A DNA stretch of 64,000 nt from Psammoneis japonica (GCA_008632985.1 QPGO01000139.1:1-64000), one strand, 5' to 3'. Counted from the stretch's first letter, positions 7,149-56,745 are shown. Notes: generated by a model from the letters alone, not told the origin. Numbers and translations are program-made.

Positions 7149-8921
7149 TGTCAATGAGGAATGTATCAAGGATTTATAGAATGTATGGTGTGATACGTGA
7201 TACAGTGCAGGAGTTTGCGATGTAGCCGCGAACACCGCGTCGCGTCTTCTGTGAATTGAATGTCGGAGGGAGTTTTTTGGAATTTCGGTGTTCTCACACA
7301 TGATATAATAAAATAGTATTTATGGATAATAAATAAAAACTCTCGCCGATGATGATGATTCTTCCAAGCAAACCCGAGCTGAAACTCTAAACAACAAACC
7401 AACGATGACAATGCACGATGATACAGGAAAGAAATCCACTTTCACAACATGTTACAAGGTAATGGCATGCCCTCGTGCTCGAATATCATTTTTAACCAAC
7501 GTCTACTAAAACTTCTAAGCTACTTCACAACTCGACAACTTCCCACGGAGGACGCTCAGACTCCATGGACTGGCTTTCCAACCTCGTGGACTTCCAAGGC
7601 ACCGTCACCAAGGTTGTACTTGTAACACTGTCCATCCTTAACGACGACCTTGATATTGTCGCGTTTCAGCATGGTAATATCTTCAAGAGGGTTCCCGTCA
7701 ATAACAATAACGTCCGCGTAGGCGCCCTCCTCGATAATACCAATAGGACCATCAGGGTAGGGGTTCATACCACCGGACCAGCCGAGAACGGTTCCAGCAT
7801 TTCCAGTGGCAGTCTTGAGAGCCGCCACGGTATCAAATCCGCCCATGGTAACCAAGGCGATAATATTATCGGCCTGGCGGGGCTGATAGGCAGAACCAAA
7901 CATGTCTGCAATAATTTCAACGTGAAAAAGGAGAACGTGTGAGGCATTACATATGCTTTCTACTTGTGCTTTGCACTGTATGTACCTACCACCGCCTGAA
8001 ATCAAAATGGGTTTGTACTTTCGCGCGAGAGCCATCATTTTGGCCGCTCCAGAATTGACCATTGCTCCTTTTTGTTGCTGTTGCTTGGTGAAAAACGTAA
8101 TGGCCTCCGGATGAGCAAAGGCTTCCAGGCTCATGACTGCCTGCAACGACAAGGCAACTCCTTCGTCCGAAATGCGTTTCATGGTGTCCTCCGTCATTAG
8201 AAAACCGTGCTCCACGCACTTGACGCCGGCATCGAGAGCACGGTTGATGGAACGGTCGTGGTAGGCATGAATCATAACGTAGCTACCATAGTCGGCGGCG
8301 ACGTCGCAGGCGGCCTTCATCTCGTCAAACGTTCCTTCGGTAATGTGAATGGGATCAAAGGCTGACGCGCATCCACCACCGGCCATGAACTTGATTTGAG
8401 TCGCCCCGTTGCGGAAGTTGTTTCGGACGGCCTTTTTCACTTCAGCAACACTGTCGCCTGGAGCAAAAAGAGGTTGGAGAAACGCAGGTTTAACAGCAGA
8501 AATAACATCATCTGTTTTCCTCTCCGCTTCGAGATGCCGACTTACAGATATGCGAAAATCCATGCTTCATGAGCTCGTCCATGGTACCTGGTTGATCAAA
8601 GCAACAACCGGTGTCGCCATGGCCACCAGTCTGACTGATAAAACCGCCACAGGCGAAGATGCGGGGTCCAGGTATGCGTCCAAGCTTGACCGCCTTGGCC
8701 ATGCCCAAAACATTCCCTCCTGCGTCACGACAAGTCGTAAATCCTTGGTTGAGATAATCTATAAGGTCCTTGGCACACATGGCTCCCATGGCCATTTGAT
8801 CAAAATCGTCCCGTCCTTCGAGCATGCCTTCTTGGATGCTCAAGTGCGAGTGCATATCCACCAAACCGGGCATGAGAGTCTTGCCGGTGCAGTCGACAAT
8901 CGCACATTTTTGATCCGTCGG

Positions 8922-9268
8922 TGTGGGAAAGTAGCCGGAATTCTGGGATTCGTCTGCACTTTCAGTGATTGAAAGCTGCAGTTGCGATGCAACAATCAAT
9001 CAGTAACTTTATTGAACCAAAAGTTGAGAGGTGACAATCAATACGTTAGAAAGATTATGAGCAGTTTTTATGAGCAGATGCAGCTGCCATCTAAAGGAAA
9101 CGCGAAGTTAAACAAGCGCAAAGCTAGGAACAAACATCGCATTCGTGACTCGGCTTCCGCGGGATTCGAGACTGAGCATCGCACACGGGGTTCGAATCTT
9201 GGATCTCTGATTGGAATCGTGGAGGTCCGATGTTGTTGTAAAAACATGCAAATATGAATATTGTCACA
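8922..9268 (-). repeat. 3' LTR (347 bp)
   Basis: Nine substitutions relative to 15131-15477. Preceded on the element strand by the polypurine tract GAAGGGAG (9269-9276). Confidence 0.97.
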
Positions 9269-9311
9269 CTCCCTTCAACAATGTCGGGTGGAATGATGAC
9301 TCGAAAACGTC

Positions 9312-12300
9312 TTACCACTTAAGGAGCGATTTCCTGTGTTTAACGAAGAGATTCTGTGGTAGAGGTTTGGTGAAAATGTCTGCAATCTGATCCGCCGTAT
9401 CAATTGGTAGGATTGATATGAGACCTTTGCGAACATAGTCTTTAAAGTGGTGGAGAGTGAGGTTGAAGTGTTTTGTCCGAGGACGCATCTTAGGCAATCT
9501 CGCGATCTCCAATGCTCCAGAATTGTCTTCAAAAGCCTTACAATGTACGACTGGTGTCTTGGAAGGGACATTATGACCGTGATCCATAAATTCTTGAATG
9601 AGGTTCATAATTGGGATGGCGCTTCGAAGACTTTCCGAAAGAGCGATAAATTCAGCTTCAGTAGTGCTGAGCGCGATCTGAGTCTGTAGCTTGGACGTCC
9701 AGACAATCGGACATCCTGCATAGGTGATGACAAACCCAGTTCGAGATTTGGAAGTGCCGACGTCATTGGGTGCAGTCAGCTTATTCCAATTGCCCACAAA
9801 GTCCGCGTCGGCGTGAACTTCAAGGGACTTGTCCGTTGAGGCTGTAGTATAATACCTTCAGTTCTGGTTGACCTTAGGTACTTACAGAGCCATAGTACGG
9901 CTTCACCGTGAGAAACCTTGGGATCGGAAGAAAAGCGTGCGACTTGGTGCACCGCGTAAGCGATATCCGGTCGAGTGCTCTTCTCCAGAAAATTGAGCTT
10001 GCCGATGATGGATCGGTAATGAAAGCTCCCTTGGAAAGCAGGCTCACTCATATGCCTGTGGAGGATCTTGGAGGAAGGAGCAGGAGTAGACTTATCTGGT
10101 AGTCTCTTTGGAATATTGGCCATCTCCAGCATCTGATTGATAAGGTGAGGTTGGGTAAGTTTCATTCTGCCGTCTGGTAGTGTCTCGACGTTGACACCGA
10201 GATAGTCGTCCAGAGTGCCTTGATCATCAATATCAAAATTCTCATCTCTGATATCCTGTATCGCCTTGTCAATAGCAGACTTGTCAGGGGATGCAAAGAT
10301 GCCGTCATCGACATGATGAATGAAAATGACATTGCCACGAAAATACAGGCACTCATCAACCGCCGATTGTACGAAACCAATCCTTAACAATCCATCACGT
10401 AAGTGTTCTTGCCATACTCTCCCTGCTTGCTTTTGTCCATATAAGTTCTTGAGCAACTTCAGAACATGAGTCTTACCATTGCCACATTTTGTTTCAATTC
10501 CTGCAGGTAACTCCATGTACATATCACACTCGATATCGGCATGCGGGTACGCCAGAACGAAGTCGACTTGGCGTGTATGCCACTTCTTAAGAATGGCAAT
10601 GATCAGTAGGAGCCGGATAGTGAACCAGAAGACCACGGCAGAGTAGGTCTGGAAGTAGTTGACAGCATGCTCTTGCTTTCCGCCGTGCACATTAAGTCGG
10701 GACTTCCATTTGTAGACGGCTTGGGTCTTAATATCTCTTTTGCGCTTCATAGACCATACCGAAGGGAGAACATCAACATCGTCAGGTACGTTCTCTCTTG
10801 GAATGAGTATCCAATGTTTCCTTTCAATATGATCATTGACTTCCTTAACACAGGCCTTGATAAATTCGTCTCTGTCAGGTTCACGCATAGCCTGATCAAA
10901 GTACATGGTGTCGGGGTCCGAGCTCGCCAGAAAAGAGATAGGTGAGTCCATATCGTCCTGCAGTTTGTAATCATCCTCGTGCATCGCATCATAATATGCC
11001 TCTGCCTCTGCATTGTAGGAGACAATGCCTTGAGCCCGTTGTAGTTGGCTCTCGCGCATCCTTTCGGTCGGGCGTCGTTGTCGGCCGGACCTACTGGTAC
11101 TGGGTTGACCCATAGTGCGCTGTGGCTCAGATGGTGCGTCAGAATCATCTGGAGGCGTGTATAGCATTTCGTCATCCGGTTGGGCATTATCAAATGAGTC
11201 ATCAGTGGTAGACGTATCAGTAGGATGCAGCAGCTGAGACGGGACATCCGAATTCGGCTCAGGTGGTTCCGTTGTGGTAGGGACTGATCCCTCAACCGGT
11301 ACGTCACTTGATTTCCCAAAGATGTTAAAAGTACTCCTTGTCTTGAGTTGTCTGAAACCTGCAATGCCTTGCCATTGTGAGAATGTAGGAGGATTCCCAG
11401 CAAAAAGGGCGAACGGTCTCAAAGAAGTCGTCAAATTGTACGTGAAATTGCGGCGATACGAGTCCGGTCTGCAAATTCAAAACCAAGGTAACTGAACCTG
11501 CGTGTCTTGTTGATGGTCCCAAATTGATTCCTAACCTTGCCCTTGGGTCCCACTTAGGCAGCCTACCTCCTCCCTGCAACCGGTTGTGCAAGGCGTAGAC
11601 GGGACAGCCGAAGGTATGGTGTTGTTTGAGATTAGGCTGGACCTTGACGGACGAGAAACGTTCCAGCGGAGAAGAACCGTCCTCGTGATTCGGTAAGTGA
11701 TTCTTGATCTCGTTTGAGTTCCTGAGAGCGCTTGGCCATAAGTTCAACTCAATAGCCGTTGGCCATCTCACTTTTGCATGCAGGAGTTGCTTCCGAGATT
11801 GCTCTTGGAGGTCCCTCATTCTTTTCTCCGCGATGCCGTTTTGGAAGTGGGCGTTGACCCCACAATAGGATATTGTTTGCTGTTGCTTCTTGACGTCTTG
11901 TATGAAAGCATTATCAGCGAATCTTCCATTGTCGGCGTGGTAGTGTTGAATACGGACGTGCATCCGGCGTGCGAATGCCTCGAAAGCGTGCTTGGCTTCG
12001 AGCGTCTCGGCTGAGGTAAGTCCTTTCTGCAAATATGTGTATCCCAATCCGCTGAAATGATCAACAAAAATTGTCGCTGCTCGATACCTTTGTTTCATAG
12101 GTCTCCCTTTGAGCTGTGGGATCAGTCCAGGAGTAGGACTTTCGAGCTGGTCGACAGATACGGCTTCTCCAGGCGAAGTTGCCAAGTGGATTCGTCGGTT
12201 CCGCTTGGACTTGGAGCGCCATGGTCGTTTCGTCATGGCACCGTATAGGCAGCCGGCACATTTTGGGTTGTGTACCTTTGTAAGGCGTTTCGGTAGAATG

Positions 12301-13571
12301 CCTAGGGCGGCCAATAGCTTTATCATTTTGAATGACATGTGGCCCAGGCGGTAATGCCAACGCAATAGTTCACCCTGGTCATCTGTGGCAGCAAGGGCGT
12401 CATCATTTGGTATGATGTTGATGGGTTCCGGTAAGTCCTGCTGTACCTCCGGTGTCGTGAAATCCCTTAGGTTTTCCTCGTCTGAGTCTGAACGACTTGC
12501 TCCGTCTGTTGGCTCAAATAAGACAGGAGCATCCTCATCAGTAGTGTTGCGTGCGTCTTGCGTCTCGGAAGGACGTGTCTCGGATGGACTTCTGAAGACG
12601 TCTGTATCAATTGCAGCCTCGTCATCATTCGCAATACTCTCGTCGTCTGGTGGTATGATGTGAGCTTGATAGGCCACGTGCTCGATAGTTTCGATATCGG
12701 TTTGTTCTTCGACAGCGGCTGCAAAGGTCCGGTATTTGTTGGAACCGGGTGCGGAGCGCATCTTGGCGACGTTAGAGTTGGCGGACCATGGAATCAGGCG
12801 ATGACACTTGCGTTGATCCCACATGAGTAATAGTCCGTCGTCCCTAGTCCAAGATACGGTTCCGTGAGACTCTGGCGTGTGGTCATTAGCTTGCTGGCTC
12901 CATTGCTGTGGGCAGAGAAGACAATGAGGTAAGTCGGGTACATAGAGTGCGTCTCGAATTTTAATGCTGTGCACTTGTCCCATGTCGTCCTCAATTGCCC
13001 ACTGCACTGTTCCTTCTCCCTTAGCACGTAAGTAGTCCTTGACACCGAGTACCACTTTGTTGGATTTGCGAAGAGGACCAATGAAGTGTGCCTCGTCGTT
13101 GGACATGGTGCAGGAAGAATGCGAGTCGACGCCGATTACGAATGAGTCCGAATCGTAAGTGGGCTCCGTTCGCTCGGGACGGTATGGTGTGGTTGAGTTG
13201 TACGCTCTAACCGTCTTGTATCGTGTAATGACATAGTGAGCCTTCTTGGTGGCCACTCTGGAGCGGTGACCTGGCCTCGTCGACGTATGATACCGTGCGC
13301 AGTACCTCGTCGTTGGCCGTCGCTGGTAAGTCTTAACTCGTCTTGTGCCCAGTTCAGCCAGGATATGTGAGATGACCCACTCACCCAGCGTCATTACGGC
13401 ATGTGACAGGCGCTTACACTTTTCTGAAGGAAGGGATAGCATCATGAATAGTAGTATGATCCAGATCGGTGCTGCACATTTCATGACGCCAGCGACCGCT
13501 ATCAGGAGCACTGACACAGTGACGGCTATCTGCAAGGACAGCAGCAGTGTCAGAGTGAACCTGCAGAGCAG
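9312..13571 (-). CDS. pol: Copia Pol (protease, integrase, RT, RNase H) with apparent 1-nt frameshifts at about 11402 and 9840
   Basis: PR: IGVDSHSSCTMS. IN: WHYRLGH..CAGC, SVDQL, HADNG, QNGIAEK. RT: QVDFVLAY, KNLYGQKQAGR, HVDD. RH: ADADF, ALSTTEAEF, FEDNSGAL, ADIFTKPL. Confidence 0.93.
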
Positions 13572-15056
13572 TCACTCTTGATCCACTTCATTTAGGATGG
13601 TAGAGACAGCACTTGCGAAGGAGACTTTCTTGTCCGACGTGTCTGTGGATGGAGCAGACTGTTGCTTGCGGAGTCTACAGCCTTGGTTGCCCGGATCATC
13701 AGGTGAGTGTATGACCCAAGCAGTGTGATATGGGCACCAGTGATAGTCGCGATAGTTGACGCGCTTGTGATAGTACTGATGACCGTTCACTGTCTTCTTA
13801 GGAGCGTCCTCCTTAGGCGGGACTTTCTTCCAGGCTTCGTCCGCTTTCTGTCTCTGACGTGGAGTGGTCTTGGTCTTCCTTGACCGTGTGCTTCTTTCCT
13901 TGGTTGAACCAGCCTTGGCCTTCAAAGCTTTAGACAGCTGAAGGTTCTGATCCTTGATGGAGTCTACCTTGGCTGCAAGCGCGACGATTTGCTCTTCAGC
14001 CGGTGATAGTGCTCCCCACTTCTTCTCGCGCTTGAGGTTAGTATGTTTGTTCAGTGCCAACGTCATGATTTGCGTCGGCGTGAATTCCTCACCGTCGTCG
14101 TACCTGTCCTTGTATAACATGATGTACTTGACGAATACTTCGTCAGCAGCTGCGGCGTATCCTTTGAATAGGTTCATGATAAGGTCGTCGCACTGCTCTC
14201 CTCTAGCTTGGAGTCCATCAACGTTGAGCTTGGCGTACTTGTTGAACTCTTCGATGTCCGAGTTAACAGCCGCCATGTACGTATCCAGGCTTGACAAGTT
14301 CTCGCGGAAGTAGTTGGTGGTAGAGCGTGTGTCAACGATGGCCTTTTGCGTAAGTAGCTTGAAGAATAGTGTGCCGATTTGATTTCCATTGATCGTATGG
14401 GAATCTATCTCAGCCAATGTCTTGTCTCTTGCTTCCTCCGTAAGGGATTGAGAGATCGCCTCGGCCATCTGCACATTGTTCTGTGCTTGTCGCGTAGGCA
14501 GATTCGCGAAGGTGTTCGCATGGGTTCTTACATCCTGTAGAGTGAGTAGTCCGTACTCGGAGATGAGATCTCGTGGAGTTCCATTCACGTCGGGAATGGT
14601 AAGTATGTCTCCTGCCCCTGTTTTCCATCCTGCCTCGGCAGCTCGTTGACTGAGTGTCTCACAAAACCGTTTGAGACCTTCTGAATCGCCGTTGAACTCG
14701 TGCGGCAGCGGTGCAGTAGCGGCGTTCCAAAGCTTGAGGCCTTGCGATGTGCCGTAGTCGATGAAGTTGTTGGGACGGTGTTGACCTGGAGTCAACGTGA
14801 AGATCGGCAGTGGTGGCACAGGTGCCAATGGTGGTCCACCTGGTGGGACTCCGCCTCCTCCTCCACCTCCTCCGCCACCTCCTCCTGGAGGTACACCGGG
14901 AGGAACGACTGGGGGAGGTACAGGAGCAACTGGAGCGGCTGCAGGAGCAGGTGCTGTTGCCGGAGCAGCAGCAGCGGTAGGAGCTGCAGCGGGTGCAGCA
15001 GCGGGAGCTGCAACAGAGGCAGCTAGAGCAGCCGCGGTTCGTGTCTGCGTGACCAC
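13572..15056 (-). CDS. gag: Copia Gag with Ala/Pro/Gly-rich N-terminus
   Basis: 494-codon ORF directly after the 5' LTR, with the CoDi-like knuckle HWCPYHTAWVIH...C. Ends in TGA in frame with pol. Confidence 0.88.
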   Translation of the reverse strand: MVTQTRTAAALAASVAAPAAAPAAAPTAAAAPATAPAPAAAPVAPVPPPVVPPGVPPGGGGGGGGGGGGVPPGGPPLAPVPPLPIFTLTPGQHRPNNFIDYGTSQGLKLWNAATAPLPHEFNGDSEGLKRFCETLSQRAAEAGWKTGAGDILTIPDVNGTPRDLISEYGLLTLQDVRTHANTFANLPTRQAQNNVQMAEAISQSLTEEARDKTLAEIDSHTINGNQIGTLFFKLLTQKAIVDTRSTTNYFRENLSSLDTYMAAVNSDIEEFNKYAKLNVDGLQARGEQCDDLIMNLFKGYAAAADEVFVKYIMLYKDRYDDGEEFTPTQIMTLALNKHTNLKREKKWGALSPAEEQIVALAAKVDSIKDQNLQLSKALKAKAGSTKERSTRSRKTKTTPRQRQKADEAWKKVPPKEDAPKKTVNGHQYYHKRVNYRDYHWCPYHTAWVIHSPDDPGNQGCRLRKQQSAPSTDTSDKKVSFASAVSTILNEVDQE

Positions 15057-15116
15057 AGTGACAGCAGAGTAAAGTAGAATCGAGAGCTTAAGATCGATTG
15101 ACTTAACTTGTAGATT

Positions 15117-15130
15117 GCGCAGAGGAAGCG
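15117..15130 (-). promoter_or_regulatory. Putative primer-binding site complementary to the D-arm of initiator tRNA-Met
   Basis: Element strand reads CGCTTCCTCTGCGC immediately after the 5' LTR. The complement GCGCAGAGGAAGCG(TG) resembles the eukaryotic tRNAiMet D-arm GCGCAGCGGAAGCGTG. Confidence 0.5.
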
Positions 15131-15477
15131 TGTGGGAAAGTAGCCGGAATTCTGGGATTCGTCTGCACTTTCAGTGATTAAAAGCTGCAATTGCGATGCA
15201 ACAATCAATCAGCAACTTTGTTGAACCAAAAGTTGAGAGGTGACAATCAATGCGTTAGAAAGATTGTGAGCAGTTTTTATGAGCAGATGCAGCTGCCATC
15301 TAAAGGAAACGCGAAGTTAAACAAGCGCGAAGCTAGGAACAAACATCGCATTCGTGACTCGGCTTCCGCGGGATTCGAGACTGAGCATCGCACACGGGGT
15401 TCGAATCTTGGATCTCTGATTGGAATCGTGGAGGTCCGATGTTGTTGTAAAAACATGCAAACATGAATGTTGTCACA
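15131..15477 (-). repeat. 5' LTR (347 bp)
   Basis: Direct repeat of 8922-9268. Confidence 0.97.
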
Positions 15478-16853
15478 GTCGGTGGCTCCAACCCCTTTCC
15501 AATCTTCTGGATGATGTTTCCAACGGTGAGGACATCGGCTCCTTCACTGTCACACAATGGCACAACAAAACAACAGAATAAAATTAACCTTCACATTCGC
15601 CGCAGTGCCCACCCGTAACATAGACGCACCTCAACTCGTCTGACTTTCCATCAAAGACATTTGCATTCTTAAAAAGGATGGCCTTGGCCGGAGGTGGTGC
15701 ATCGGGAGCACGGCAGTTCAACGGAAAGCACTCGGGCATGGTCTTTTGCTTTTTCAGTTTTGCCTGTCTTGAAGTTGGAGTTAGGAGTTGTGGTACCCGG
15801 TGCAGCGATTGGAAGAAGTTCTGAATGAAGTTGGAAGATGAACGCGGTGCTCAGAAGATGAAATCATCGTCTTGCGGAAAAGATGCCGAAGATTGCACTC
15901 TACATCGCTGAACGTTTGATTGCGAATGCGCGACGTCACAGCACATACGGTACGGCACTACTCAATACTTTCATACCGTACTCAATACGACTTCGACCAA
16001 ACTGCCGCCTTCCATCTTCCATCTTCATTCCATCACTTCTCACTTCTCTAGTATGAGGCTACGACTAGCACAATGTGCAAAATAGACTATTACAAACTGA
16101 ATACTTTGTATTTAAATATATAGTAAATGTCTGAATGATTGGTATGTAAAATGACTGCACATGACTCCTGCTGTAGAATTTGTACCAGTCTACGTATTTA
16201 TTGCTCTACGAACTGAAGCCCTATAGAAATGTCTGGTGTTAAGTAAATTCAAATGTCGGAGCCGCCAAAATGGACCGAAACGCCGGCCACGTCTTTTAAT
16301 AAAACATCCGAACTTGTTTATTGATTATGAAGCAGTCGGAGTTGAAAAAGTAATATCAAAATTTGAGTCATAATTTGAATAGGAAACATTTAAAAAATCT
16401 TCTAATTGTGTTACAAGTATCGATTTTTGACTACAAATTGTATGGGTTACATCTGTAAAAATGCCATAATTATTTGCTAAAAGCCGTTATCATTAAACAT
16501 CGATGTACAAAAAATGCGATACGGGTGTTCGGGACGTTTTTTACAGTTCACATTGTGCTAGTCGTAACTCCATAGAGAGGGCCTAACGCGCACGTAGAGG
16601 TCGCTTCCCTAACTAATAAACAATCGACAATGGCAGTAGTTAGTTGTCGGTAGTAGTCGTAGGTGGCACACCGCCAGCAAACATCATCTTCTCCCTCAAC
16701 CTTGAATATTTTTCCAATCTTCGAACCCAGAAACCCTGAACCTCCTGATCAACGTGGCAACGCAAAAGTTCAACGACGTTTCAACGAGGAAGAAGATAGG
16801 AGTCTAGTGTTCAGTTTGATCAGCGCAGTGGAGTCTTAAAAGTATTTCAAGCC

Positions 16854-31326: not shown

Positions 31327-32089
31327 CATTCTCTAGCTAGAGCTAGAGAGAAGCGTGCACAGGGCTATAGTAGCTAGAAATCTATTAACTAAGCAAGTGG
31401 CATTTGCCTGTATTAAATAGAAACCTCTCAATCTCAGTACTGTAAGCATCACCAGCAGTTTCAGTTCGACTGGTCGAGTAAGGAATCAAGTTGACGTACG
31501 GACTAAAATGATCTCATCAGTCTGCACATGCAAAGAAACAGGCAAAGCAAAATGTGTGTCAAGTGATTGTGTGTTAGAGTGCTTGCAGAAGCTCACAGAA
31601 CTGTTCATTTCAAATCTTGCTCCATGCAACCACCATGCATCTGGCAGACTTGGAGAAAGCAAGAGAGCTTTTCTCTGTGCTAACGACCCTCTCCCCACAA
31701 CTCTTGTCAATCACGGCAACACAAGTGGGCCAGAAGTTTGGTTTCCAACAAAAGAACTTTGCCTGCAAATTCTTGTCTGTCAAGAAACAAGTGGATGATG
31801 GGTCATTTTGCCTTTTGGCACATGCAGTGATGAGTTGATTTGTGCCAAGTGACTGGCACAAAAAAATTCATCAACTTTGGCATGGTTCCTGTGCCTTTCC
31901 AGAGGTTTGCTTTGGTCAAAGAAATGGTGGTTGCAATCACAGACCATTGCTCATGGGAAAAGGCTCAAGTGTGTTTTGTTGGTTGTGACTCTTGCACATG
32001 ACTGTTGTCGATCATTTGGTGTTGTGGTGTCAGTCATTTTGGCTGGTGAGGGTTCCAATGACATCACTCCTGTTGGTTGTCTGTCACTG

Positions 32090-32540
32090 CCCACCATCCA
32101 AATCTGCCAATTGAGGAAAAGCTTGAAGTTGGAGGTTGTTTGTGGTTCTTTCTTTTTACCTGCTTTGTCCCCTGCATTGTTGTTGGGTGACATGCAAGTG
32201 CCACACAAGTTTCTCATTGAAATGAAAAAAGCAACACAAAGACAAATGGGCAGCCAATTTAGAGCCGCGCCAGTTGTCTGCCACTGTGCTGCCCAAATCT
32301 GCCAACTGAGGAAAAGCCCAAAGTCTGAGGTCACATTCATTGCTCTTTCTCATTGCTTGCTTTCTTGTTGTTGCACTTTGCCATTGTTGGACAAAATGCC
32401 AACATTGTGTGAGCATGTGCTGAAGCAGAAAAGTCAAACAAAGACAAATTGGCCAATTTGAAGCCACACCAGCTGTCTGTCATTTCACCATCCAAATCCA
32501 CCAATTGAGAAAAAGCTTGAAGTTGGATGTTGTTTGCAAT
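32090..32540 (+). repeat. Degenerate direct repeat, period about 196 bp
   Basis: ccaaatc(tg/ca)ccaa(t/c)tgag(g/a)aaaagc recurs at about 32098, 32294 and 32492. Confidence 0.65.
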
Positions 32541-32975
32541 TCCCAGCCATCTTGAAGTGCAAGCCATTGCAAAGCTTTTTAACTTGCTCGAGCTGATGAC
32601 CAAACTCCTCACAAGAAAAGATGAGATGTTGTGCAGCCAAGTCACAAGATTTGGAGCTGTTTTCTTTTGTCTTGTCCACTTTATGCTGCACATCATGCAC
32701 CTCCTGTTTTTGCAAATGATGACTTTCCAACTCATCAAAGCACTTGTCAATGGTTGGACATGGGCACAACTTGAGACTTGTTCCCTCATTTGACATGTTG
32801 CCATGGTGCAGCTCCCCAGCTTGATGGAGAGTCATCACATTGTGAGACCAGAAGAGGCACAAACAGAACACAACTGTCTTCTCAGCATTGGAGCATCTGG
32901 ACCACAGGATGAAAAACCCAAGTCCATTGAAAAAAAAATGCTTTGGCTCCTGACATGGTGATGCAAGCAACTGTT

Positions 32976-33984
32976 TGTCAAGGAATTTTCATGGCCACTG
33001 AACCCTCACCTCTGCTTTCATCTTGCTGTTTGGAGTGAGTTGTTTGGTGCATCATCCATTTGCCTTTCAGCACCACTGGGCACCTGTTGTTGCACAAATT
33101 TGAAGTTTGCACTGACAACTTCTGGGCAACCCAAGGCCAAGCAACAAAGACTGCCAAGTTCTTGAATGCAGTGGGCATCACAGGAAGCCTTGCAGGACTC
33201 CTTTTTGGGGATGTTGACTTGCTGGTTCAACACTCACTCCAAAGAGGCCCTGATGCTGCTTCAAGTGCTTGTGCCTGCCAACCCACAGTTGACAGAACAC
33301 TGCACACCTGCAAAATGAGTGACAGAGGAAGAGGCAGCACAAGCGGAAGGACCAAGGCCAAAGCATGGCCAAGGCAGAGGTGACAACAGTTGCAGGTCCT
33401 CTGGCCAGAAGAAGAAGACCAACAAAAAAGCTTTCAGCCTGACACAAAGTTCCACCCTTGCTTGCTTCATCACTGAGTGGCAATTTTTGCAGCAGTGCAT
33501 GTGAAGACATCAAAGAGAAAGCCTTCTTTTGCTTGCAAAAAGAGTGTGAGCAAGGTGCGAGCATCTGATGATGTCTTTGGAAGACATGAAGTGCAAGGGG
33601 TGTGGTTCTGAGAAGCTCACCTCGAAGGTGTCACCAGCGAAAATGCCCAAGGCAAGCATTGCAGAGTGCCACAAGGCACCAAAGGAAGGAACAGCATGAA
33701 GACAAAGAACTCAAGTGCAAAGCGGAGCTGAGCAACTACCACAGCAAAGTGGCGCAGTTTGAAGAATGAGACAACTGCACCTGTCAAGATCCTGGAAGAT
33801 TGCTGCACCAAGCTGATGAAGCAAAAGTGCAGGGCAATCCCAGATGCTCCAGCACTGGGGATGATCCAATCAAGCTGAGGAAGAAGCTGATCCAACCCCT
33901 TGCACTTGACTCAATGAGATGTGGGCACCCATTGCAACAACAAAACAACAAAACAACAAAACAACAAAACAACAAAAAAACAAA

Positions 33985-34015
<31 letters not shown>

Positions 34016-35954
34016 CACAACAACAACGACAACAATGACAACAACGACAACAATGACAACAACGACAACAACGACAACAACAATGACAACAAGCAACAAC
34101 AACAGCAGTTGGCCCAACAATGCAAAGGACCTGAGCCTTGCCCAGAAGAGCAGCTCCAGCAATGCTGTGGCATGCCACTGCTGGGGTGCACCAGGGCACA
34201 AGTCCCCAGGCTGCAAACATCTGAGCAACATTGCACACAACAGCTGCTGGTTCAAAAGCACCTGAACAAAACTGGATGTTGGGGGGCAGAGGCACACACA
34301 AACTTCAGCAGCAGGCAATGATGACCACCTGTTGGTGGATGGCAACAACGTGAGTGTCAACACCACCAGATCTAGCCAGCTGACCCACTCCAGCTGGAGC
34401 AGGAGCACGGCATGGCATGATGGGTTGCAACTGACAAACAAAAGGTCAGAAACAAGAAGTGTGAGCCAAGCCAATGCAGGCATCAAGAGCAACAAAATTG
34501 TCCTTGACAATGGCTTCACCCTCAGCATGCTGGACAAGAAGACTGGTGAGCAAGTCACAGTGTTTGGAGTTGACAATGTTGGACCATGTGCAATCACACC
34601 AAGCCAGCAATTCTTTGACCATGCAAAACATCTCCAAGAAGGTGAGTTGCATGTGAGAGCACTGAACTGTGGGTCTGATGGGGGGACATGCAAGCACTCA
34701 GACTATCTTGCAAGGCTGGAACACCCAGTGTGAGGGATTTTCAAGTGATTTTTGCATTCAAACCAGGTGAAGATCTTGTCCATCACACCTGAAGACATTG
34801 ACAGAATGGCAGCTGTTTGGGGTCCACCAATGGATGCACTGAAAGGCAAGACCAAACACATGCATTTTTTTCATGAGAGGAACAATGCCACAACAGCCAG
34901 CACACCTCAGCCATGCCAGAAGCAGAGAGAAGCAAGGTGTGATCCTCTGCATCAATGCTTTAGAAGCATGCTGAGTCAAGATGCTGCACGTGACAGACAA
35001 GACAATCAAGTGCCAATCAAGTGTGAGGCTAAAGTCAAAAGCACACTGATGTGTGGTGCAACACACTGGGACATGATTCTCCAACAGCACAACATGGTGC
35101 CACTCAAGTTTGGCTTCATTGCATGTGATCCCAAGTTGATGCAAAAGACAAGAGAGAGGGTCACACATTTGGGTGTGGTGAGAACACATCTTCTCTGCCA
35201 AAGTGGCATGACCCATCATTGAGAAGGCTCAGGTGCTGATGGAAGACATGAACAAACACATCAAACAGCATGCTCCAGAAGTTTGTGAACACATGTCTGC
35301 CACTGTTCCAACATTCTCCATGCACAAGGACAATGATGTGAGTGCACACCATGTGAGATTGGAGTGCATGACAGCAAGCACATTTGACCAAGGAACATTG
35401 GTGTGTCATTGGAGGCTGAGCCTCAAGGCAGGGCAAGGCATGTTGTTGCAAATGGAGGCAACGCACAGACAGTGTCATCAAACAGATGAGTTACAGCAAG
35501 TTTGTTGCTGGATCAAGAGGCAGGGATTTGAAGTTGGCCAAGACAGAAGTGATCCTCAATGCTCTTGGCCCAAAATTTAAATCATCAGCACAAACAACAG
35601 GAGTGTTTTGGAACATCCAGATCATCGGTGTTGTGAGGAATGCAGTGGCCCATTGAGAAAAAATGCTTTGACTCCTGATGTGGCATTGTGAGCAACCATT
35701 GGTGAAGGAATTTGAAGCTGCTGATCTCTCACCTCTGCTTTGGGCCTTCATCTCACCAGTTGTTTGGAGCAAATCATTTGGTGTGTCATCTGCTTGCCAT
35801 TTGGCATCACTGAGCACTGGTTGTTGCACAAGTTTCAAGTTTGCATTGACAACTTCTGGGCAACCAATCTGCTGTCAAGGTGAATGCAGCAAGCATCACA
35901 GGAAGCCCTGTGGGGCTCCCTTTTGGCAACATTGACTTGCCAGTTCAGCACTCA
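32976..35954 (+). mobile_element. Ancient, internally deleted Ty1/copia (CoDi-type) element with diverged LTRs (about 32976-33236 and 35700-35954)
   Basis: Flanking direct repeats share ctcacctctgcttt, ttgttgcacaa, gacaacttctgggcaacc and gcatcacaggaagcc. Internal relics: IVLDNGFTLS (protease-like), ITPEDIDRMAAVWGPPMDALKGKT (CoDi pre-integrase-like), KFGFIACDPKL (RT-like). Confidence 0.6.
33934..34107 (+). repeat. (CAA)n / (AAC)n imperfect microsatellite
   Basis: About 170 bp of caa/caaaa/gacaa units inside the relic gag region. Confidence 0.9.
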
Positions 35955-37199
35955 GGGCCCAAACAAACAAACTTGGAAGAGAAAGAAAATCCTTGCTTGT
36001 GAGGACCAGCAAAGCCAGACAACACCAGGTGCTCCTCTTTGTTCTTCAAATCTTGCACAGGCTGAAGCATTGCCATTGCAAACTCCTCATCCAACCCAAA
36101 GCATTTGAGTGCCTTGCCACAAAAAAAGACTGGGCACACTTGCAAGTTCTTTGTTGACAATGCCAAGAACTTGTTCAAAACATTGCTTGCTGTGCCATTT
36201 TTTCAACTGCAGCACAAACAACAAAGCATCAAAGTTGAGCATGTTGCTGCCCTGCTGAAGTCAACCTGCACTGGTGCATTGTGCTCAAAGAGCAAGTGCA
36301 AACAAGAGCAGAACAAATCACAAAAAGTGGAAAATTGTGAGATTGGATTTTGCTCTGCCAGTCTGGGTTTTTCCATGTGGGCTCTCAATGGCCCAAAGCA
36401 TTTGCACTGTGGTTGTTGCATGTCACAGTGCTCACAGAAGCTTGCAGAACAATCAATTTCAAATTTGGCTCAGCTGTGAAATGACCACATGTCCAGTCAA
36501 CTTCTTGGACAAAGCAAGCAGTTTCTCACTGACAACACTGCATTTGCCAGTCATCATCATGATGCAATGCTGCTGTGCTCAAACTGTCTGGACACACTTG
36601 CAATGATTGTCAATGTGTCTTCTGCATCCTTGAGACTCTTTCCAGGAAAAGCAAATTCAAGCTGAGCTGCAAAAAACTTTGGTTCTGAGTCTCAAGTCTG
36701 GGAGTCAGCAGAAATCTGAAACTGCACTTGCAAACTTCTTTCACATTAGCTTGGTTTGGACTGCATGCACTCCAACACTGCCCATGCATTGGTTTTGACT
36801 TCAGCACTGGCTTTCTGAGGACAATGACAAGCTCAATTAAAAATCCAGTGCACACACAAAATGAGGGCACATCTGACAACAAGAGTTTGGGTGACTGCAG
36901 GTCTTTTGAGGACAGTGCCCATGCTTGTGTCTGTTTGTTGATGGCATGCCATTTGCAAAATGGTTTGGTGTCAATGGTCCTGGCACATTTGTCACACCAC
37001 AATTTGCACTTGGCATGCCACAAAGAGGTCCTTGTCTCTTTCTCATCTCCTGCGGGGGCTGCTCCTGCTGCAGTTTTCATGATTTTTACACTCGCAACAC
37101 ACCTCTTCACATCTTTTGTTTTGGCCCCATGTGGGTGCATGTTGATGATGTGACGTGGCCATTGCTTTGATGCTTCTTGTGACTGTGTGCAGTCTCATT

Positions 37200-39400
37200 T
37201 TGATTGCTCATGTGCATGAGAGGGTTTTCCTTGTTTTTCATGTTCTTGGCAGCAGTGGCTGCCTTGAATCAATGCATGACTCATGCTTGCCAAGATTCAC
37301 ACATCCAGGACACTCAATTGGCATGCTTTTTTCTGGCTTGCACCCCCTCCAGCACATGCTTGTGGGCTCCATGCTGCCACACCTCAGCTCTGCCTGGAAC
37401 AAACCACTCTCTCCCACAAAGTGGCACAGTGAAGGCAAGTCAAGTCAATGATCAATGCAACAAGTTGAGATGGTTGGGCATGTGTGCAATGTTTGCAACT
37501 GCACATGACTCGTGAGCATTGCTTGTGTTCACAATGAAAGTTGGCCACCAGCAAGCAAGAAGGCAGCCAGGGTGTGGGGTCAGCAGCCACAGGCTTGGAG
37601 TTGCCAGCAGCAGGCTGAGCAACTGGCTCCCTTTGACTGGGTGCAGATGGGTTGGGAGTCAAGAGATTTCTTTTTTCAGCATTGGCGCATCTTCTTGGAG
37701 ATGCCTTGACTGTTCCACAGGAGGGTGTCTTCCAACTTGCCAGAACAACAAGGGGGACCCCTTTGGCTGGCCTGGCTTTTTTGCTCCCTTCACCTGTTGT
37801 TGTCCATCCTTCAACCTGGACACTCCTCCACCAGACGGCATTCATGTGGAAGTGGAGCTCATCACATGGCCATCAACTTGAAACAAGCTGGCATTTTTTG
37901 TTGAAGGATCATTCCTGTTTTGAGTTGGAGACACCCTGTCACAGCCTTGGCTCAGCTGCACCTCTTGGCAAGAACACATGTGAATGTTGTCACAGCATCT
38001 TGACACAGCTGCAAGTCTGTGGACACATTCACATGGCTTTTGCACAAGTGATGGGCATGAACGGATGTAAGAAGTCACATCTTGTGTGCTGCTGCTGAGA
38101 TGGCAGCAGCTGGCAAGGTGAACAAACACTGATCTTGTCTTGTGGCTCCAGAGTCCAGAGTGCCATGCATCCCAAGAAGCAGAAGTTGTTCCCTGTCACT
38201 GTGTGAACAGAAGGCTGGGATGGGAGGAGGGAAATTTTCAGTGTGGGGCACCATTTTTGGTTGGCAAACAGATCTCATGTCACACCAATGGCTCGCCAAG
38301 AACAACAAGGGATGTGCTTGGGCAGGCCTTGTCTTGCCATCGGCCATCTGTCCATCTCACTTCCACATCTGCACTGCTGTTGCTTGGTGTGCAAGGTGGG
38401 TGATGACAACTCCAAGAGCCCAACTGCCAACAAGAGATTCCACTCTGTCTTTGTCTTCTTGCAAGCTCAGCTCTCATGTGCTTTTGGCTCAGTGTGGACC
38501 TGAGCAGGATTGCTGCTGTGGCCAATTGGAGCTTTGATGTCTGACATTGAAATGCAAGCCAAAAGCATGACAAAACAATGTGTGAGTCCATGAACATCAC
38601 TCATTTGTCAGCCAACACAAACAACTGTCAAGTGATTGAGAAGCGGTGCACATGGTCTGCAAGTGCCTTGTTGACATGACTGCACCTGAGTGGCTTAAAA
38701 ATTCTTCCCATGTGGACCCCAAGTGTTTGACACAGCATCATCATGATGTTGTTGGTGCAAACAAAGGTGATTGGTGGTGGCAGTCCAGCCAATCATTTGC
38801 ACACATTGATGATCAGATGTAAAAATTGCAAGATTCTGGTGTTTGACACAGAAGCATGAAATTGACGTGGTCTTGATGATGGCAGAAAACAGCCCAGTTG
38901 GGTCAGAACTGCCAAGGAGGTCAACATCACTGTGCACAATCTTGCCTGGTTTGTCTGCAGCAGCCCTGGATGCCTTGGGCACCTGTGGGGGGTCTGGCCA
39001 GCATTGGTGGGCCCAGAGCACAGAGCACACATGTGGGGCGGGGGGCAGCAGGGATGTTGGCAATGTTGGTGTCAGGATGGTGTGTGCACAAGGCAGCTGC
39101 CCCACTGACCCCGCTCCAGTCATTTTGTAATTTGTTTCACACCTGGCACACACTGTTCTTCTGTGTGTGGCATGTGCATGGTCTGCTCCTGCTCAGCAGC
39201 TCTCATTGCAGCGCGTGCCTTTGAAGTGCTGGTGCCCCAAACACATGGGCATGTTGTGGTGGGGACTCAGGGGCAGCGCAGCATCATTGTGTTGGCAACA
39301 AGCCTTGGCTGACTTCACACTGCAGTTCAGTGTGCTGGTGCTTTTTCAAGGGTGGCAACACCCTGTTCCCAACCAACTTGCAAACCCTGCTGCTGGGGGG
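37200..39400 (+). mobile_element. Possible relic of a tyrosine-recombinase (DIRS/Ngaro-like) retrotransposon
   Basis: Weak motif resemblances in the expected order: TIFGWQ (RT), CTAVAWCARWVMTT (RNase H-like), GLRGSAASL (SLR.GGA-like box of YR). Heavily mutated. Confidence 0.2.
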
Positions 39401-39559
39401 TGCCCATGGTGTGGCAGGTGGTCCCATGCTGGCCAACTGGGCATTGACTTCTGAGCACATTTCCATGGATGGTGGCTCACAGTGAGGCCAGAGACATGTG
39501 AGTGGGCATCCATCTGCACAGCAACCAAGGACAATTCAAAGCAGCACACAGGAAAGCCT

Positions 39560-42300
39560 GTGGTGGCCAATCATCTGTCCCCTCAAAGATGGGGCAGCAA
39601 GGTCTGGCGCTGGGGCTGGGAGGTCTGTTCACTCTTGCCAGGAGCAGAGCCAATTGTTTGCAGCCAACTGGGTGTTGTGGACAAGAAGGGCTGGTGCAAG
39701 GTGTTGCATGGTGGGGTTGTGAGGTCACACTCAACACTCCAGCTCAGCTGGCGGCATTGGCAACCATGGTGGAGAGGGGGGGGGGGGGGGAGGTGCACTG
39801 GTGCACAACTTCTTTCTGATTGGTGGAGAGCGGTGCTGTCACATTGCACCTGCAGGCCACTTGGCAGCAGTGCATCTGCAGACTTGTGCAAAAGCAGCTG
39901 CTGGGGGGAGCTGCAGGTCCAGCCAAGGGGGGGGGGGCTTCTTGATCCACCATGAAAGACAAGGATGAATGGAGAGGGGTGTGCCACATGCACACCAGAG
40001 GGCACCTGTGGTGTGTGAGCAGTTGGGGGACACCCACACTTTGCCGAGATGATGTCATCAGCACTGTCCAAGAAGATTGTGGAAGTGCACTTCATTTCAC
40101 CCCTTCTTGACAATGAGTTGGAAGGTGTCAACCTGCACATTGTCAGGTGCAGCATGATGGAGGAGGCAGCCCCACCACCCAACGAGCCTTGAGCACCCAG
40201 TCAGACATGGCTGGTCAGAGCTCAGTGGTGCCAAGCATCTTGCCGTCATCAACGAAAGACCTGCCACTGTTTGCACGGCAATTGCATGGGCCAAGATGGT
40301 GGGCACATTCTTCATCCTTGTGACTGTCTGCTGGTTGCTTGATGTTGCAACAATCAACAACAACAAAGAATGACCTCCTTGGAAGATGCAGCAGTGTCTT
40401 GCCAAAGGTGTGCAAATCTTGGGTTCACTGTTCAATTGGTTTTTTGCAGAAAGCTCACAATTGACAGCACCTGTGGCTGCATTTCCAGGTTTAACAACAG
40501 CCTGCATTTCCATCCAGGAAGGCAGGGGGGCAATTGCAGCCTTCTGGCCAATGTCATGAGCTCCAGTCAAACATCTGCATTGTTTGACATTGTCATTCAA
40601 AAGGGAAAGGAAAGACTTGCAAGCCTTGATTTGGTTGAGCTGAGGAGGAACCACTCCAACAAATCTCTTCCTGAGGCAAAGGCATGCCACAGCCTGAGTG
40701 CAAACCTCCAGTTTCCAATCGTCTTGGGCTTGGGTGCATTGCCAAAATGATGGAAGTCCTCTCATCCACACCATGCTCCTCCTTGTGCAAGTGGAACAAA
40801 AGTGGATGAACAACTTGGACAAGTGGAAGCCAAAGAATTCATCTGCCATGTCAGCCAGGTTGCAGCCCATCCCAAGTGCCAACCAAAAGGAGCATCTGGG
40901 CTGTTGCACTCAAAAAGCACAGACCTGGAGTGCAGGCATGTGTTGCACATTGGACAGAAATCAACTCAAGGCAGTTAAGCTGGAACACCAAACACAAACA
41001 ATGGCACACCTCACAGACAAGTTGGGAGCATCCATTGGGGTCTAGGTTGCACTTGTTTTTGATGGTGAAAAACCCAGGCAACCAGCTGGTGTGCTCACCA
41101 TCATGCAATCCATTGCTGACACTGTGCCAAGACAATCAAATCATTGGAAGTTCCTGACATGCTGGGCCAGAATGGGATCACAGGCATCTTGATTTTTGCC
41201 ACATCATTGCACCCCTTGTGCATCTGCAAGTTGATTGCACAACATTTCAATTCGCTGGTTGCTGGGTCTGGTTGCATGCTCGACAGACCAATGACTTTGC
41301 TGCTGTCACCATTCTTGGTGTCATCTTGACACTCACAATCAAAGCCAGGTGCTTGCCATGTGGTGATGATTCTTGAACAGTCCATCATTGCCTTGGGGGG
41401 TCCATTGTGCTGCCAAACATTGTGCTGTGCTGTGGATGATTGGGGTTGGCAAAAGGGTGCTGACCCTTTGGGATGAAGGGTGCCATCTCACCTGACAATC
41501 CAGCAGCAATGGAAGATTTGATCATGGCATTGACAAAGGCAGGATTGGGCTCACGCTCGCTGGATTTTGACTGCAACTTGGGTGGCACATGTGTGGCTTG
41601 AAGCATGCTGGGACAGCTGTGTCCATCCGTGCTGGCAGTGTGTCCATTGGATTGGCCACCGGCGGCAAAGCCAACATCACAGAAGTCACTGGGTTTCTGC
41701 CATTTCATGGAGTTTTTCTTTGGAATGGCATTGAATTTACATCCAAATTCAATGCCCTCATGGACTCCACGCCAGTCAACCTCCTTCACCAAAAAGCACC
41801 AGCACCTTGGTCTCCTTTGTGGATGATTGTTGTGTTGTGTCATTGGTGTGGACAAACATTTTGGGATTGCACAAACACACAGCTGGAGACACACCCAGAG
41901 CTTCAAAAATCTGCTTCAGCTGCCTCATCAAAAAACCAATCTGGCGCTGGGCATGACCATGCTTGCCTTTGTGCAACAAATGTCCTTGGCACTTTGCCTG
42001 GGGCCAACAGCGAATCTCGGACACACACTCAAGGATGCGGTCAATGTCCAGTTTGCCTCTGTCAATGAAAGTGGATTTTTCTTCTCTGGAAAGATCAAAC
42101 CACTTGTCATTGAACTTCTTGATGAAAAAGCCATGGTTGAAAATAGAGTTCTTGTAGAGAGAAGCTGGCAAGGAGCGGCACAGATGCTGGAAATCTTGTG
42201 CAGTTTGGATGGGAGACATGGGTGGGCAGAAGCATTTGTTTGATGGATTGGCAGAAGCACACCATCAGTGTTTGCACCATGGGAAGTGGCAACATCAGCA
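39560..42300 (-). pseudogene. Decayed long coding relic, possibly an endogenised negative-strand RNA virus L (RdRp) gene
   Basis: Ordered motif resemblances: NQIK...(F), GAQGSLGGGAASSIMLH (B), LDSADDII (C), HKS...VQCDS (D/E). No clear motif A. Confidence 0.25.
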
Positions 42301-44450: not shown

Positions 44451-44519
44451 TCCAACAACAGACAGTTGCAAGCAGATGGCATCACCATTTTTAGCTCTGT
44501 GTCACATGTGCACAAAAGG

Positions 44520-56649: not shown

Positions 56650-56745
56650 GAGGGCTGGGAAGTCAAGAGGAATCTGCACAGTGAGGGCTGGGAAGTTGAG
56701 AGGAATCTGCAGATGAGGGCTGGAAAGTTCACAGGAATCCAAAAG
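56650..56745 (+). repeat. About 33-bp tandem repeat, three copies
   Basis: gagggctgg(g/a)aagt...aggaatc repeated three times. Confidence 0.75.

Follow-up and report, generated by a model that had tools for sequence, protein, structure and literature searches.

Why should the two long terminal repeats (LTRs) of a single, recently inserted retrotransposon differ mainly at one kind of dinucleotide? The element in question is a Ty1/copia retrotransposon at 8922-15477, on the minus strand of a 64,000-nt stretch of the Psammoneis japonica genome, the whole of which is referred to below as the window. When such an element integrates, a single template serves for both of its LTRs; the differences between them are post-integration, and editing of the genomic RNA is therefore excluded as their source. 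The LTR pattern is most likely an early trace of the DNA editing that stripped almost all TA from older repeats nearby. In the reading that we favour, with a probability of roughly 0.7, a recent copia insertion has been subject to a post-integration process that converts TpA to TpG or CpA, and the same process lies behind the TA-free blocks of the window. It brings together the context bias of the LTR differences, the youth of the insertion, the polarised losses of TA within the element and the blocks themselves.

Structure and identity of the element

The LTR pair is 97.4% identical, has TG..CA ends and is flanked on both sides by the 5-bp sequence GTCGG, as in an LTR element; an integrase lies upstream of an RVT_2-type reverse transcriptase on the minus strand, which is the Ty1/copia gene order (Table 1). 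Because the copia ORFs are on the minus strand, the right-hand LTR is the 5' LTR. This is not an intact autonomous copy: its coding region is in four ORF pieces, the frame changes twice, and an in-frame TGA (13572-13574) splits pieces 1 and 2. One frame change falls between pieces 4 and 3, near 9800-9839; the other is near 11403, where most family contigs, when read contigs are compared with this copy, lack one base, so that it either is unique to this element or stems from misassembly. Both frame changes could be assembly errors. In the Y-x-D-D motif of the reverse transcriptase the conserved Y, present in 32 of 34 homologs, is read as H. ORF piece 1 had no Pfam match, a search for primer self-complementarity after the 5' LTR found no complement of at least 8 nt in the LTR, and the 64-kb window contains neither another copy of the element nor another LTR pair.

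The closest copia protein in a protein search is 69% identical, so that only distant homologs were usable for comparing copies. Ten metagenome loci encode relatives with 37-59% identity, too distant for LTR alignment; a single one of the ten (L005) has terminal repeats, of 119 nt and with 99% identity. IMG/VR contained no copia relative and no exact match to the LTR. Diatoms are among the best named matches, the named copia relatives coming from Attheya, Epithemia and Fragilaria, and a host gene in the window has its best named match, at 67%, in Seminavis robusta.

Spliced introns are also densely packed on the antisense strand of the copia lineage here, those of this copy being listed in Table 1. 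An antisense protein gene in this copy was considered and rejected, since stops interrupt all three frames in most of the 12 exons that the introns shown delimit.

Table 1. Features of the element, its flanks and the TA-free blocks, in window coordinates; X1 and X2 are public read runs
Feature	Position	Strand	Description
Left-flank host DNA	8549..8763		Window TA, X1 empty-site contig CA/TG, at 8549, 8755, 8761 and 8763
Target-site duplication, left copy	8917..8921		GTCGG, 5 bp; empty-site joint has a single copy
3' LTR (left in window)	8922..9268	-	347 bp, TG..CA; 13 TpA; TA at 6/7 TA-class variable sites
Putative polypurine tract	9269..9276	-	Sense strand GAAGGGAG; directly upstream of 3' LTR; role predicted from sequence
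ORF piece 4, RNase H end of pol	9312..9797	-	Matches the C-terminal region in 30 copia homologs
ORF piece 3, reverse transcriptase	9776..11434	-	Pfam RVT_2, E = 3.7e-35
GT..AG intron array	10399..14708	+	Introns of 70-113 nt each, antisense to copia ORFs; spliced in run X2
ORF piece 2, protease and integrase	11325..13535	-	Pfam gag_pre-integrs, SH3_retrovirus, Pol_BBD
ORF piece 1, gag region	13572..15056	-	Same frame as piece 2
5' LTR (right in window)	15131..15477	-	347 bp; 8 TpA; TG/CA at 6/7 TA-class variable sites
Target-site duplication, right copy	15478..15482		GTCGG, 5 bp
Right-flank host DNA	15680..15729		Insertion sequence TG/CA, X1 and X2 empty-site contigs TA, at 15680, 15714 and 15729
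TA-free block 1	31500..45000 (approximate)		TA 0-5 per kb, CG nearly absent, TG+CA about 230 per kb
TA- and CG-poor block 2	51000..61500 (approximate)		Degenerate tandem repeats, 26-nt and 20-nt period

Age of the insertion and its flanks

The empty-site joint, running from 8916 to 15478, was found in both of the public read runs X1 and X2; a third run, X3, yielded no matching sequence. As the empty-site allele is present in these reads, the insertion is young: it is intergenic, recent and still polymorphic, in keeping with the suggestion of a first-pass annotation of this DNA that the change at TA has an early onset.

Host DNA on either side of the insertion also differs between alleles. All 11 of the flank differences listed are of the TA class (seven) or the CpG class (four), and they occur on both alleles. 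At the four left-flank sites in Table 1 the X2 contig agrees with the window; because the left flank keeps four TA that are absent from the X1 empty-site contig, TA-class change is not limited to the element-bearing allele. A three-haplotype parsimony on the flanks was dropped, since bubble popping may have fused two alleles into a chimeric X2 contig; this leaves two haplotypes that can be relied on, and hence the flanks give no direction.

LTR differences are concentrated at TpA

Aligned at an offset of 6209, the LTRs differ at exactly nine of 347 positions, all by transitions. Given as left-LTR positions with the left/right contexts, these are 8971 (TG/TA), 8981 (AG/AA), 9004 (TA/CA), 9011 (TA/TG), 9043 (TA/TG), 9057 (TA/TG), 9120 (CA/CG), 9253 (TA/CA) and 9260 (TA/TG). 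Seven of the nine are thus TA against TG or CA, as expected of changes at TpA that give TpG or CpA, one is AA against AG and one CA against CG; both the positions and this breakdown agree with the first-pass annotation, as does the presence of TG/CA in the promoter (right-hand) LTR at six of the seven TA-class sites.

The excess that had been claimed for this context is real. A transition of the TA<->TG/CA class would arise at 80 of the 347 LTR sites, an expectation of 23%, and the probability of at least seven in nine is 8e-4. Change at TA has also outpaced change at CpG in this LTR pair, as had been proposed: half of the inferred TpA differ between the LTRs (7/14), against 1/19 CpG (Fisher p = 0.005). 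The asymmetry that had been read into the pair holds as a count, with a 6:1 split of TG/CA towards the 5' LTR, but not as a significant bias on its own (two-sided p = 0.125). A broader WA>WG signature is unneeded, the single AA>AG site falling within background.

Direction of change

That TA was lost to TG/CA, rather than gained, is indicated only indirectly, by codons within the element, the skew of family variants, the TA-free blocks and a preprint on Bigelowiella in which this kind of change arises de novo. Internal codons were polarised on residues conserved in at least 70% of 30-40 distant copia proteins. TA had been lost at 4 of 72 non-synonymous targets and gained at none of 130 (p = 0.015), other transitions being found at 4 of 556 (p = 0.008 against TA loss); the polarised set is small, at four events, part of which may predate the insertion. 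Three of the losses lie in piece 3, at 10315 (the Y of Y-x-D-D to H), 10163 and 10130 (I to M), and one in piece 2, at 11817 (I573M). The TA state at 11817 accounts for 720.7 of 750.7 of the X1 family read depth, and the residue is I in 40 of 40 homologs; as both keep TA, the loss there is private to this copy.

Comparison of 1144 X1 family contigs with the element gave 319 places with A>G or T>C, 204 with G>A or C>T and 65 with transversions. Among the internal family variants listed, 12 of the 19 analysed are of the TA<->TG/CA class. That listing covers 40 of the 591 variant places, and the nine LTR sites are not among the 40. At least seven internal places have TA in this copy and TG/CA in most or all of the X1 family depth; by parsimony these are gains of TA, unless parallel losses took place in older copies. 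The one diverged LTR fragment observed, represented by two contigs with a loose end at 9005, agrees with the right LTR at 8981 and at 9004 (CA at the latter), so that plain parsimony makes the TA of the 3' LTR at 9004 derived; if loss of TA recurs in parallel, the fragment fits either direction. The nine LTR differences nevertheless probably arose in the direction of TA loss.

Two further lines were set aside. Alternation of TG and CA in the diverged LTR and in tandem-repeat units is ambiguous as proof of a TA ancestor, because a CpG ancestor yields the same pair. The difference in depth between LTR bins is matched by equal differences between neighbouring internal bins, and contig depth does not equal copy number.

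TA-free blocks

TA falls to 0-5 per kb in the two blocks of Table 1, against 30-50 per kb in genic DNA, and CG to 0-20 per kb, with an excess of TG+CA that about equals the missing TA and CG. TA o/e is 0.01-0.04 in these repeat blocks, at a GC content of 0.43-0.58, and 0.5-0.75 in the genic parts of the window. The borders are sharp, TA dropping over roughly 1 kb from 30-50 to 0-5 per kb whilst the adjoining genes retain it; at the block edges TA is already gone and CG is partly kept. There is no TA-enriched region in the 64 kb, the extremes being TA-free. Of 41 ORFs taken from these blocks, not one scored above the curated Pfam cut-offs, and hence the blocks were assigned to no transposon family.

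Proposed mechanism and its alternatives

In the favoured reading, a Ty1/copia element would have landed between genes of a diatom-like genome in the recent past, after which a process acting on DNA would turn TpA into TpG or CpA (A:T to G:C), on whichever strand, the TA step being a palindrome. About half of the 14 LTR TpA would thereby have been affected in either of the two LTRs, more often the 5' one, as would several of the element's conserved codons; carried through to the end and combined with CpG decay, the same process would leave two blocks nearly without TA and CG. Such a process is probably enzymatic and directed at repeat or foreign DNA. By analogy with the proposal for Bigelowiella natans in a preprint (Mettrop et al., bioRxiv 10.64898/2026.01.13.699255), its chemistry may be adenine deamination at TpA. 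A more elaborate scheme is tentative: a diatom TpA to TpG/CpA editor directed by chromatin might hit new retrotransposons while the insertion is still polymorphic, begin at the promoter LTR and spread a few hundred bases into host DNA, as a defence common to chlorarachniophytes and possibly old in SAR, and an array of about 14-22 antisense introns, conserved in this copia lineage, may be an answer to silencing by antisense RNA.

The sharp borders of the blocks, next to genes that keep their TA, make it improbable that TpA is simply, along with CpG, the most mutable step in all non-genic DNA, the LTRs and blocks recording nothing but time. Differences confined to the TA and CpG classes in the host flanks of both alleles are what such an untargeted bias would produce, as would a targeted one, and even genic DNA has a depressed TA o/e; however, half of the LTR TpA already differ in an insertion that is still polymorphic, and the B. 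natans signature is limited to particular integrated regions. Change in the opposite sense, from CpA/TpG to TpA by C to T mutation as in repeat-induced point mutation (RIP), would place the events mainly in the 3' LTR and left flank, where ten TA-rich states cluster on the insertion allele between 8549 and 9260. Neither two alleles nor two LTRs give a direction, and at 9004 the state of the diverged LTR fragment is CA. We nonetheless consider it a poor candidate, given the absence of TA gain among the 130 polarisable targets as against four losses in 72, the lack of any TA-enriched region, a skew of family variants to G/C rather than A/T, and a host gene and copia relatives that indicate a diatom rather than a fungus; RIP is not known from outside the fungi.

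If a deaminase acted instead on single-stranded reverse-transcription intermediates, the LTRs would already have differed at integration, which would account for a divergence of 2.6% in so young an insertion and for its uneven split between the LTRs. APOBEC-type restriction offers an analogy for such deaminase editing of replication intermediates. It would explain neither the TA-class differences in flanking host DNA nor the TA-free blocks, tandem repeats included, and the B. natans mutations arise in resident chromosomal DNA; we regard this origin as very unlikely. Still less credence is due to an artefact, whether through a modified TA step that was miscalled or misassembled or through gene conversion by other copies. 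Both frame changes do sit where family contigs differ by single-base indels; however, X1, whose reads can be taken as accurate because the run includes a 315-kb contig, holds both states side by side at TA-class places (for example 970.8/2149.5 of depth at 10485), and the changes at conserved codons match those expected of real TA>TG/CA mutation. Post-integration conversion of TpA thus remains the preferred explanation.

Implications

Were this reading true in diatoms as in Bigelowiella, TpA editing of mobile DNA would extend beyond one alga, and one of the main groups of marine phytoplankton would have a second, chemically opposite counterpart to fungal RIP. A young, polymorphic insertion with half its LTR TpA changed gives a handle on the tempo of the process. 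Dating by LTR divergence would overestimate age in such genomes, here by about 4.5-fold (9/347 against 2/347), much as the first-pass annotation had warned. TA-free blocks defeat homology-based annotation of repeats, as the failure of all their ORFs at the Pfam cut-offs illustrates, and SNP spectra close to repeats will be skewed.

Comparison with known systems

Diatom Ty1/copia elements were reportedly sorted into 'CoDi' groups by Maumus and colleagues in 2009. The present element resembles these in its copia gene order, RVT_2 domain, short LTRs and diatom relatives, and differs in that its closest protein is just 69% identical. Decay of CpG by methylation and deamination likewise turns a palindromic dinucleotide into TG/CA in repeats, in the same blocks here, and explains the one CA/CG site in the LTRs (9120). 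It accounts for only one of the nine differences though 18-19 CpG were available, and removal of TpA by this route is impossible.

In RIP, as found in Neurospora and other Pezizomycotina, filamentous fungi with cytosine methyltransferases of the RID/DIM-2 type, CpA is changed to TpA by C to T mutation and AT content rises. The likeness is that dinucleotide-specific transitions wreck repeated or foreign DNA and leave a skewed dinucleotide footprint, and that an element's two LTRs drift apart more quickly than the clock predicts. Here, however, TpA is removed: in place of TpA- and AT-rich repeats there are 0/130 TA gains and TA-free blocks with the low TA o/e and GC content given above, and in place of a filamentous fungus a host whose matches are to Seminavis robusta, Attheya, Epithemia and Fragilaria. 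RIP is also named in the Discussion of the B. natans preprint (10.64898/2026.01.13.699255).

The closest parallel drawn here is to B. natans, for which that preprint describes TpA-specific hypermutation of giant-virus and virophage DNA in the integrated state. In mutation-accumulation lines, two integrated viral regions gained 231 new mutations, of which 230 were A>G or T>C, all of these sitting on TpA, and TpA-poor coding sequences were enriched for reverse-transcriptase and DDE domains (Mettrop et al., bioRxiv 10.64898/2026.01.13.699255). The two systems share TpA as the target, a product of TpG or CpA according to strand and a long-term depletion of TpA with enrichment of CpA+TpG, and probably also a change from A:T to G:C, against the usual direction. 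They differ in that the process was seen de novo in B. natans and is deduced from sequence here, and in their hosts, a rhizarian there and a diatom-like stramenopile here, the preprint making no mention of diatoms. The target here is an LTR retrotransposon together with repeat blocks, the depletion is near total and accompanied by loss of CpG, and the host flanks of both alleles also carry TA-class differences.

Structure and age of the copia insertion

Base-by-base alignment of a direct repeat with a spacing of 6209 nt resolves two LTRs of 347 bp, each starting with TG and ending with CA, and the sequence GTCGG flanks the element on each side. Its internal ORFs are read from the minus strand and place integrase-type domains ahead of RVT_2, which makes this a Ty1/copia element with the right LTR as its 5' LTR. 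Named relatives of its reverse transcriptase (RT) include Attheya, Epithemia and Fragilaria, and together with the Seminavis robusta relative of the adjacent amidohydrolase ORF they point to a diatom as the likely host. The coding region is split into four pieces, with two frame changes, near 11403 and near 9800-9839, following the protease-integrase piece. Most family contigs are one base shorter than the element at 11403-11406, hence the first of these frame changes either belongs to this copy alone or is an assembly error. At the tyrosine of the RT Y-x-D-D motif the codon is now CAT, for histidine; one TA>CA transition accounts for it and has probably disabled the enzyme.

Features of the copia element and its surroundings, with the conserved residues altered by TA loss
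Feature	Position	Strand	Remarks
Amidohydrolase ORF	7556-8563		beside element; best named relative Seminavis robusta (67% identity); unnamed proteins up to 72%, dinoflagellates 62-65%
Copia element	8922-15477	minus
Left (3') LTR	8922-9268
Right (5') LTR	15131-15477
gag_pre-integrs, Pol_BBD, SH3_retrovirus		minus	internal ORFs, upstream of RVT_2
gag piece	13572-15056	minus	one frame with protease-integrase piece
Protease-integrase piece	11325-13535	minus	TGA between it and gag piece
TA loss	10315		RT Y -> H; Y in 32/34 homologs
TA loss	10163		RT I -> M; conserved-residue alignment
TA loss	10130		RT I -> M; conserved-residue alignment
TA loss	11817		I -> M; I in 40/40 homologs

The family was followed in two public read runs of one study, X1 being accurate DNA-like data (longest contig 315 kb) and X2 RNA-like (longest contig 16 kb, with spliced joints). 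Contigs of both join 8916 straight to 15478, with a single GTCGG; from this empty site it follows that the sequenced material is heterozygous or polymorphic for the insertion, and that the insertion is young. No second copy was found within the 64-kb window. The 1144 X1 contigs on the element comprised 270 at 99% identity or above, 400 at 95-99%, 364 at 90-95% and 110 below 90%, a spread indicating many family copies of differing ages. Relative to this copy they show A>G at 146 places, T>C at 173, G>A at 114, C>T at 90 and transversions at 65; as there are many copies, and most variant places therefore represent changes in the others, the family spectrum leans from A:T to G:C, the opposite of the usual mutation bias.

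Divergence of the LTR pair and direction of change

The nine LTR differences described in the first-pass annotation were all recovered by alignment, each at the place reported and every one a transition: seven are TA in one LTR against TG or CA in the other (TA-class), one is AA/AG (8981) and one CA/CG (9120). TA-class transitions are possible at 80 of the 347 LTR sites, giving P = 8e-4 for at least seven of nine by chance. There are 13 TpA in the left LTR and 8 in its partner, with 7 TpA and 18 CpG common to both, such that, if TA was lost, 7/14 TpA have changed against 1/19 CpG (Fisher p = 0.005), which bears out the view that TA-class change outpaces CpG change in this pair. The proposed asymmetry towards the 5' LTR is seen in that six of the seven sites read TG/CA in the right LTR, though this is not significant alone (p = 0.125). 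Read as loss, the changes on the plus strand are five TA>TG and two TA>CA, hence both strands would be affected. A diverged LTR fragment, represented by two contigs with a loose end before 9005, matches the right LTR at both 8981 and 9004, which tells against TA loss.

Direction was approached by three indirect routes, two of them being the TA-poor blocks and the Bigelowiella natans mutations described below. For the third, distant copia homologs were aligned with the RT piece (34 proteins), the integrase piece (40) and the RNase H piece (30), and deviations from residues common to at least 70% of homologs were scored where a single transition would reverse them; RT residues 537 and 541, inside the frame-change zone, were excluded. 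The element has four TA losses (see table), three CpG losses and four other transitions, and neither TA gains nor CpG gains were found among these polarised deviations. Per unmutated target, TA loss stands at 4/72. This compares with 0/130 for gains of TA (p = 0.015), 4/556 for transitions of other kinds (p = 0.008) and 3/107 for CpG loss. The TA state is retained at 11817 in 720.7 of 750.7 of family read depth, so this loss is private to the present copy.

A less likely rival to TA loss is a RIP-like process working in the reverse direction. The read variants include some that tell against TA loss. Of 591 variant places, 40 were listed, all lying outside the nine LTR sites, and 30 analysed, ten rows at 14043-14136 from two strongly diverged contigs being excluded. 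Among the variants listed, 12 of the 19 internal places analysed are TA-class; at seven of them this copy has TA and most or all of the X1 depth has TG/CA, and the other five are reversed. These seven would be equally well explained, neither account being proven, as TA gains by plain parsimony or as parallel TpA loss in older copies.

TA-poor blocks in the window

Two blocks of complex sequence, at ~31.5-45 kb and ~51-61.5 kb, contain 0-5 TA and 0-37 CG per kb, compared with 30-50 TA and 50-65 CG per kb in genic parts of the window. In the blocks TG and CA together rise from ~140 to ~230 per kb, an increase approximately equal to the missing TA and CG. At the block edges TA is lost before CG, being gone where CG is partly left (e.g. 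TA 3 and CG 37 at 44001-45000); no TA-enriched region was found anywhere in the 64 kb. The absence of TAA and TAG from the blocks results in long ORFs in all frames, and none of 41 ORFs from the blocks reached a Pfam cut-off. The second block also contains tandem arrays with periods of 26 nt and 20 nt, degenerate in sequence (52187-55728 and 57342-59485; units 60-98% identical), among which are long imperfect inverted repeats, such as 52977-53241 and 54082-54346 (86% complementary).

Antisense introns in the element

X2 has 22 joints inside the element, 15 of which were listed. Thirteen of these 15, at 10399-14708, skip 70-113 nt and show GT..AG borders in the plus-strand reading, so they run antisense to the copia ORFs; the remaining two are the empty-site joint and 11299->11410, where 110 nt are swapped for 19 other letters. 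The latter, seen in one X2 contig and overlapping the frame-change zone near 11403, represents either variation in a different copy of the family or alternative splicing. No antisense intron joints were seen in X1. GTAAGT occurs in the internal region 11 times antisense and once sense (dinucleotide shuffles 1.45 +/- 1.21; 11 or more in 0/2000), and at least 10 of 14 GTRAGT sites serve as donors of listed joints. Codon usage was rejected as the cause of this excess, since donors are found in each of the three phases of the sense codons. Most exons between the introns carry stops in every frame, hence the antisense RNA looks non-coding. X2 depth is nil at 8994-10228 and 14922-15415 (the LTRs and RNase H end) and 170-900 over 10229-14921, thus the family RNA in this run seems to be mostly an internal antisense transcript rather than full-length sense RNA.

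The closest metagenome relative fetched (L001; RT identity 59%) has 12 antisense and one sense GTAAGT (shuffles 1.13 +/- 1.07; 12 or more in 0/2000). One donor position is exactly common to it and the element and three lie within 4-7 codons, the positions being mostly different; the other nine metagenome loci have 0-3 antisense GTAAGT each. In one of the metagenome loci, L005, the same 119 nt are present at both contig ends (1-119 and 6390-6508; 99% identity), and possibly represent two LTRs truncated at the contig borders. Antisense introns have reportedly been described in Drosophila TART, and a dense array of them in a copia element was not found in the literature searched. Our guess is that they might help the element evade silencing set off by antisense RNA.

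Origin of the TpA changes and comparison with known systems

Both LTRs of one insertion are copies of a single RNA. Any editing of that genomic RNA would thus leave them alike, and the changes were made on DNA. Post-integration TpA conversion is most likely to account for the LTR differences: a process acting preferentially on repeat or foreign chromatin would, after integration, convert the adenine of a TpA step, on one strand or the other, into a base read as G. Competing explanations are that the cDNA was edited before integration, or that the differences are an artefact.

The preference for repeats is where an untargeted TpA bias of non-genic DNA remains a live alternative. When the host flanks of the window (8530-8763 and 15680-15843) were set against those of the empty-site contigs, all 11 differences listed were TA-class (7) or CpG-class (4). 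In the right flank, which adjoins the 5' LTR, three sites are TG/CA with the insertion and TA on the empty allele, a pattern that fits a spreading outward from the element; at four sites of the left flank the insertion allele has TA and the X1 contig CA/TG. The insertion allele is thus TA-poorer on the right and TA-richer on the left, in a comparison of two alleles from which direction cannot be read. On this evidence TA-class change is not limited to the element-bearing allele. The X2 empty-site contig resembles an intermediate haplotype, and is possibly a chimera of the contig builder.

Post-integration TpA conversion has a counterpart in the rhizarian alga Bigelowiella natans. In a preprint on its mutation-accumulation lines, two integrated viral regions acquired 231 new mutations; A>G and T>C make up 230 of them, every one of these at TpA. 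Reverse-transcriptase and DDE domains are enriched in TpA-poor coding sequences, and an ADAT2-like adenine deaminase is proposed (Mettrop et al., bioRxiv 10.64898/2026.01.13.699255). Adenine deamination is accordingly borrowed from there as a candidate chemistry. The preprint is silent on diatoms, and no report of TpA hypermutation in diatoms was found in the literature searched. To the signature, known from this one preprint, the present analysis contributes a TpA case at an insertion that is still polymorphic, a polarised test on a small set of changes, and a comparison of flanks with the empty allele.
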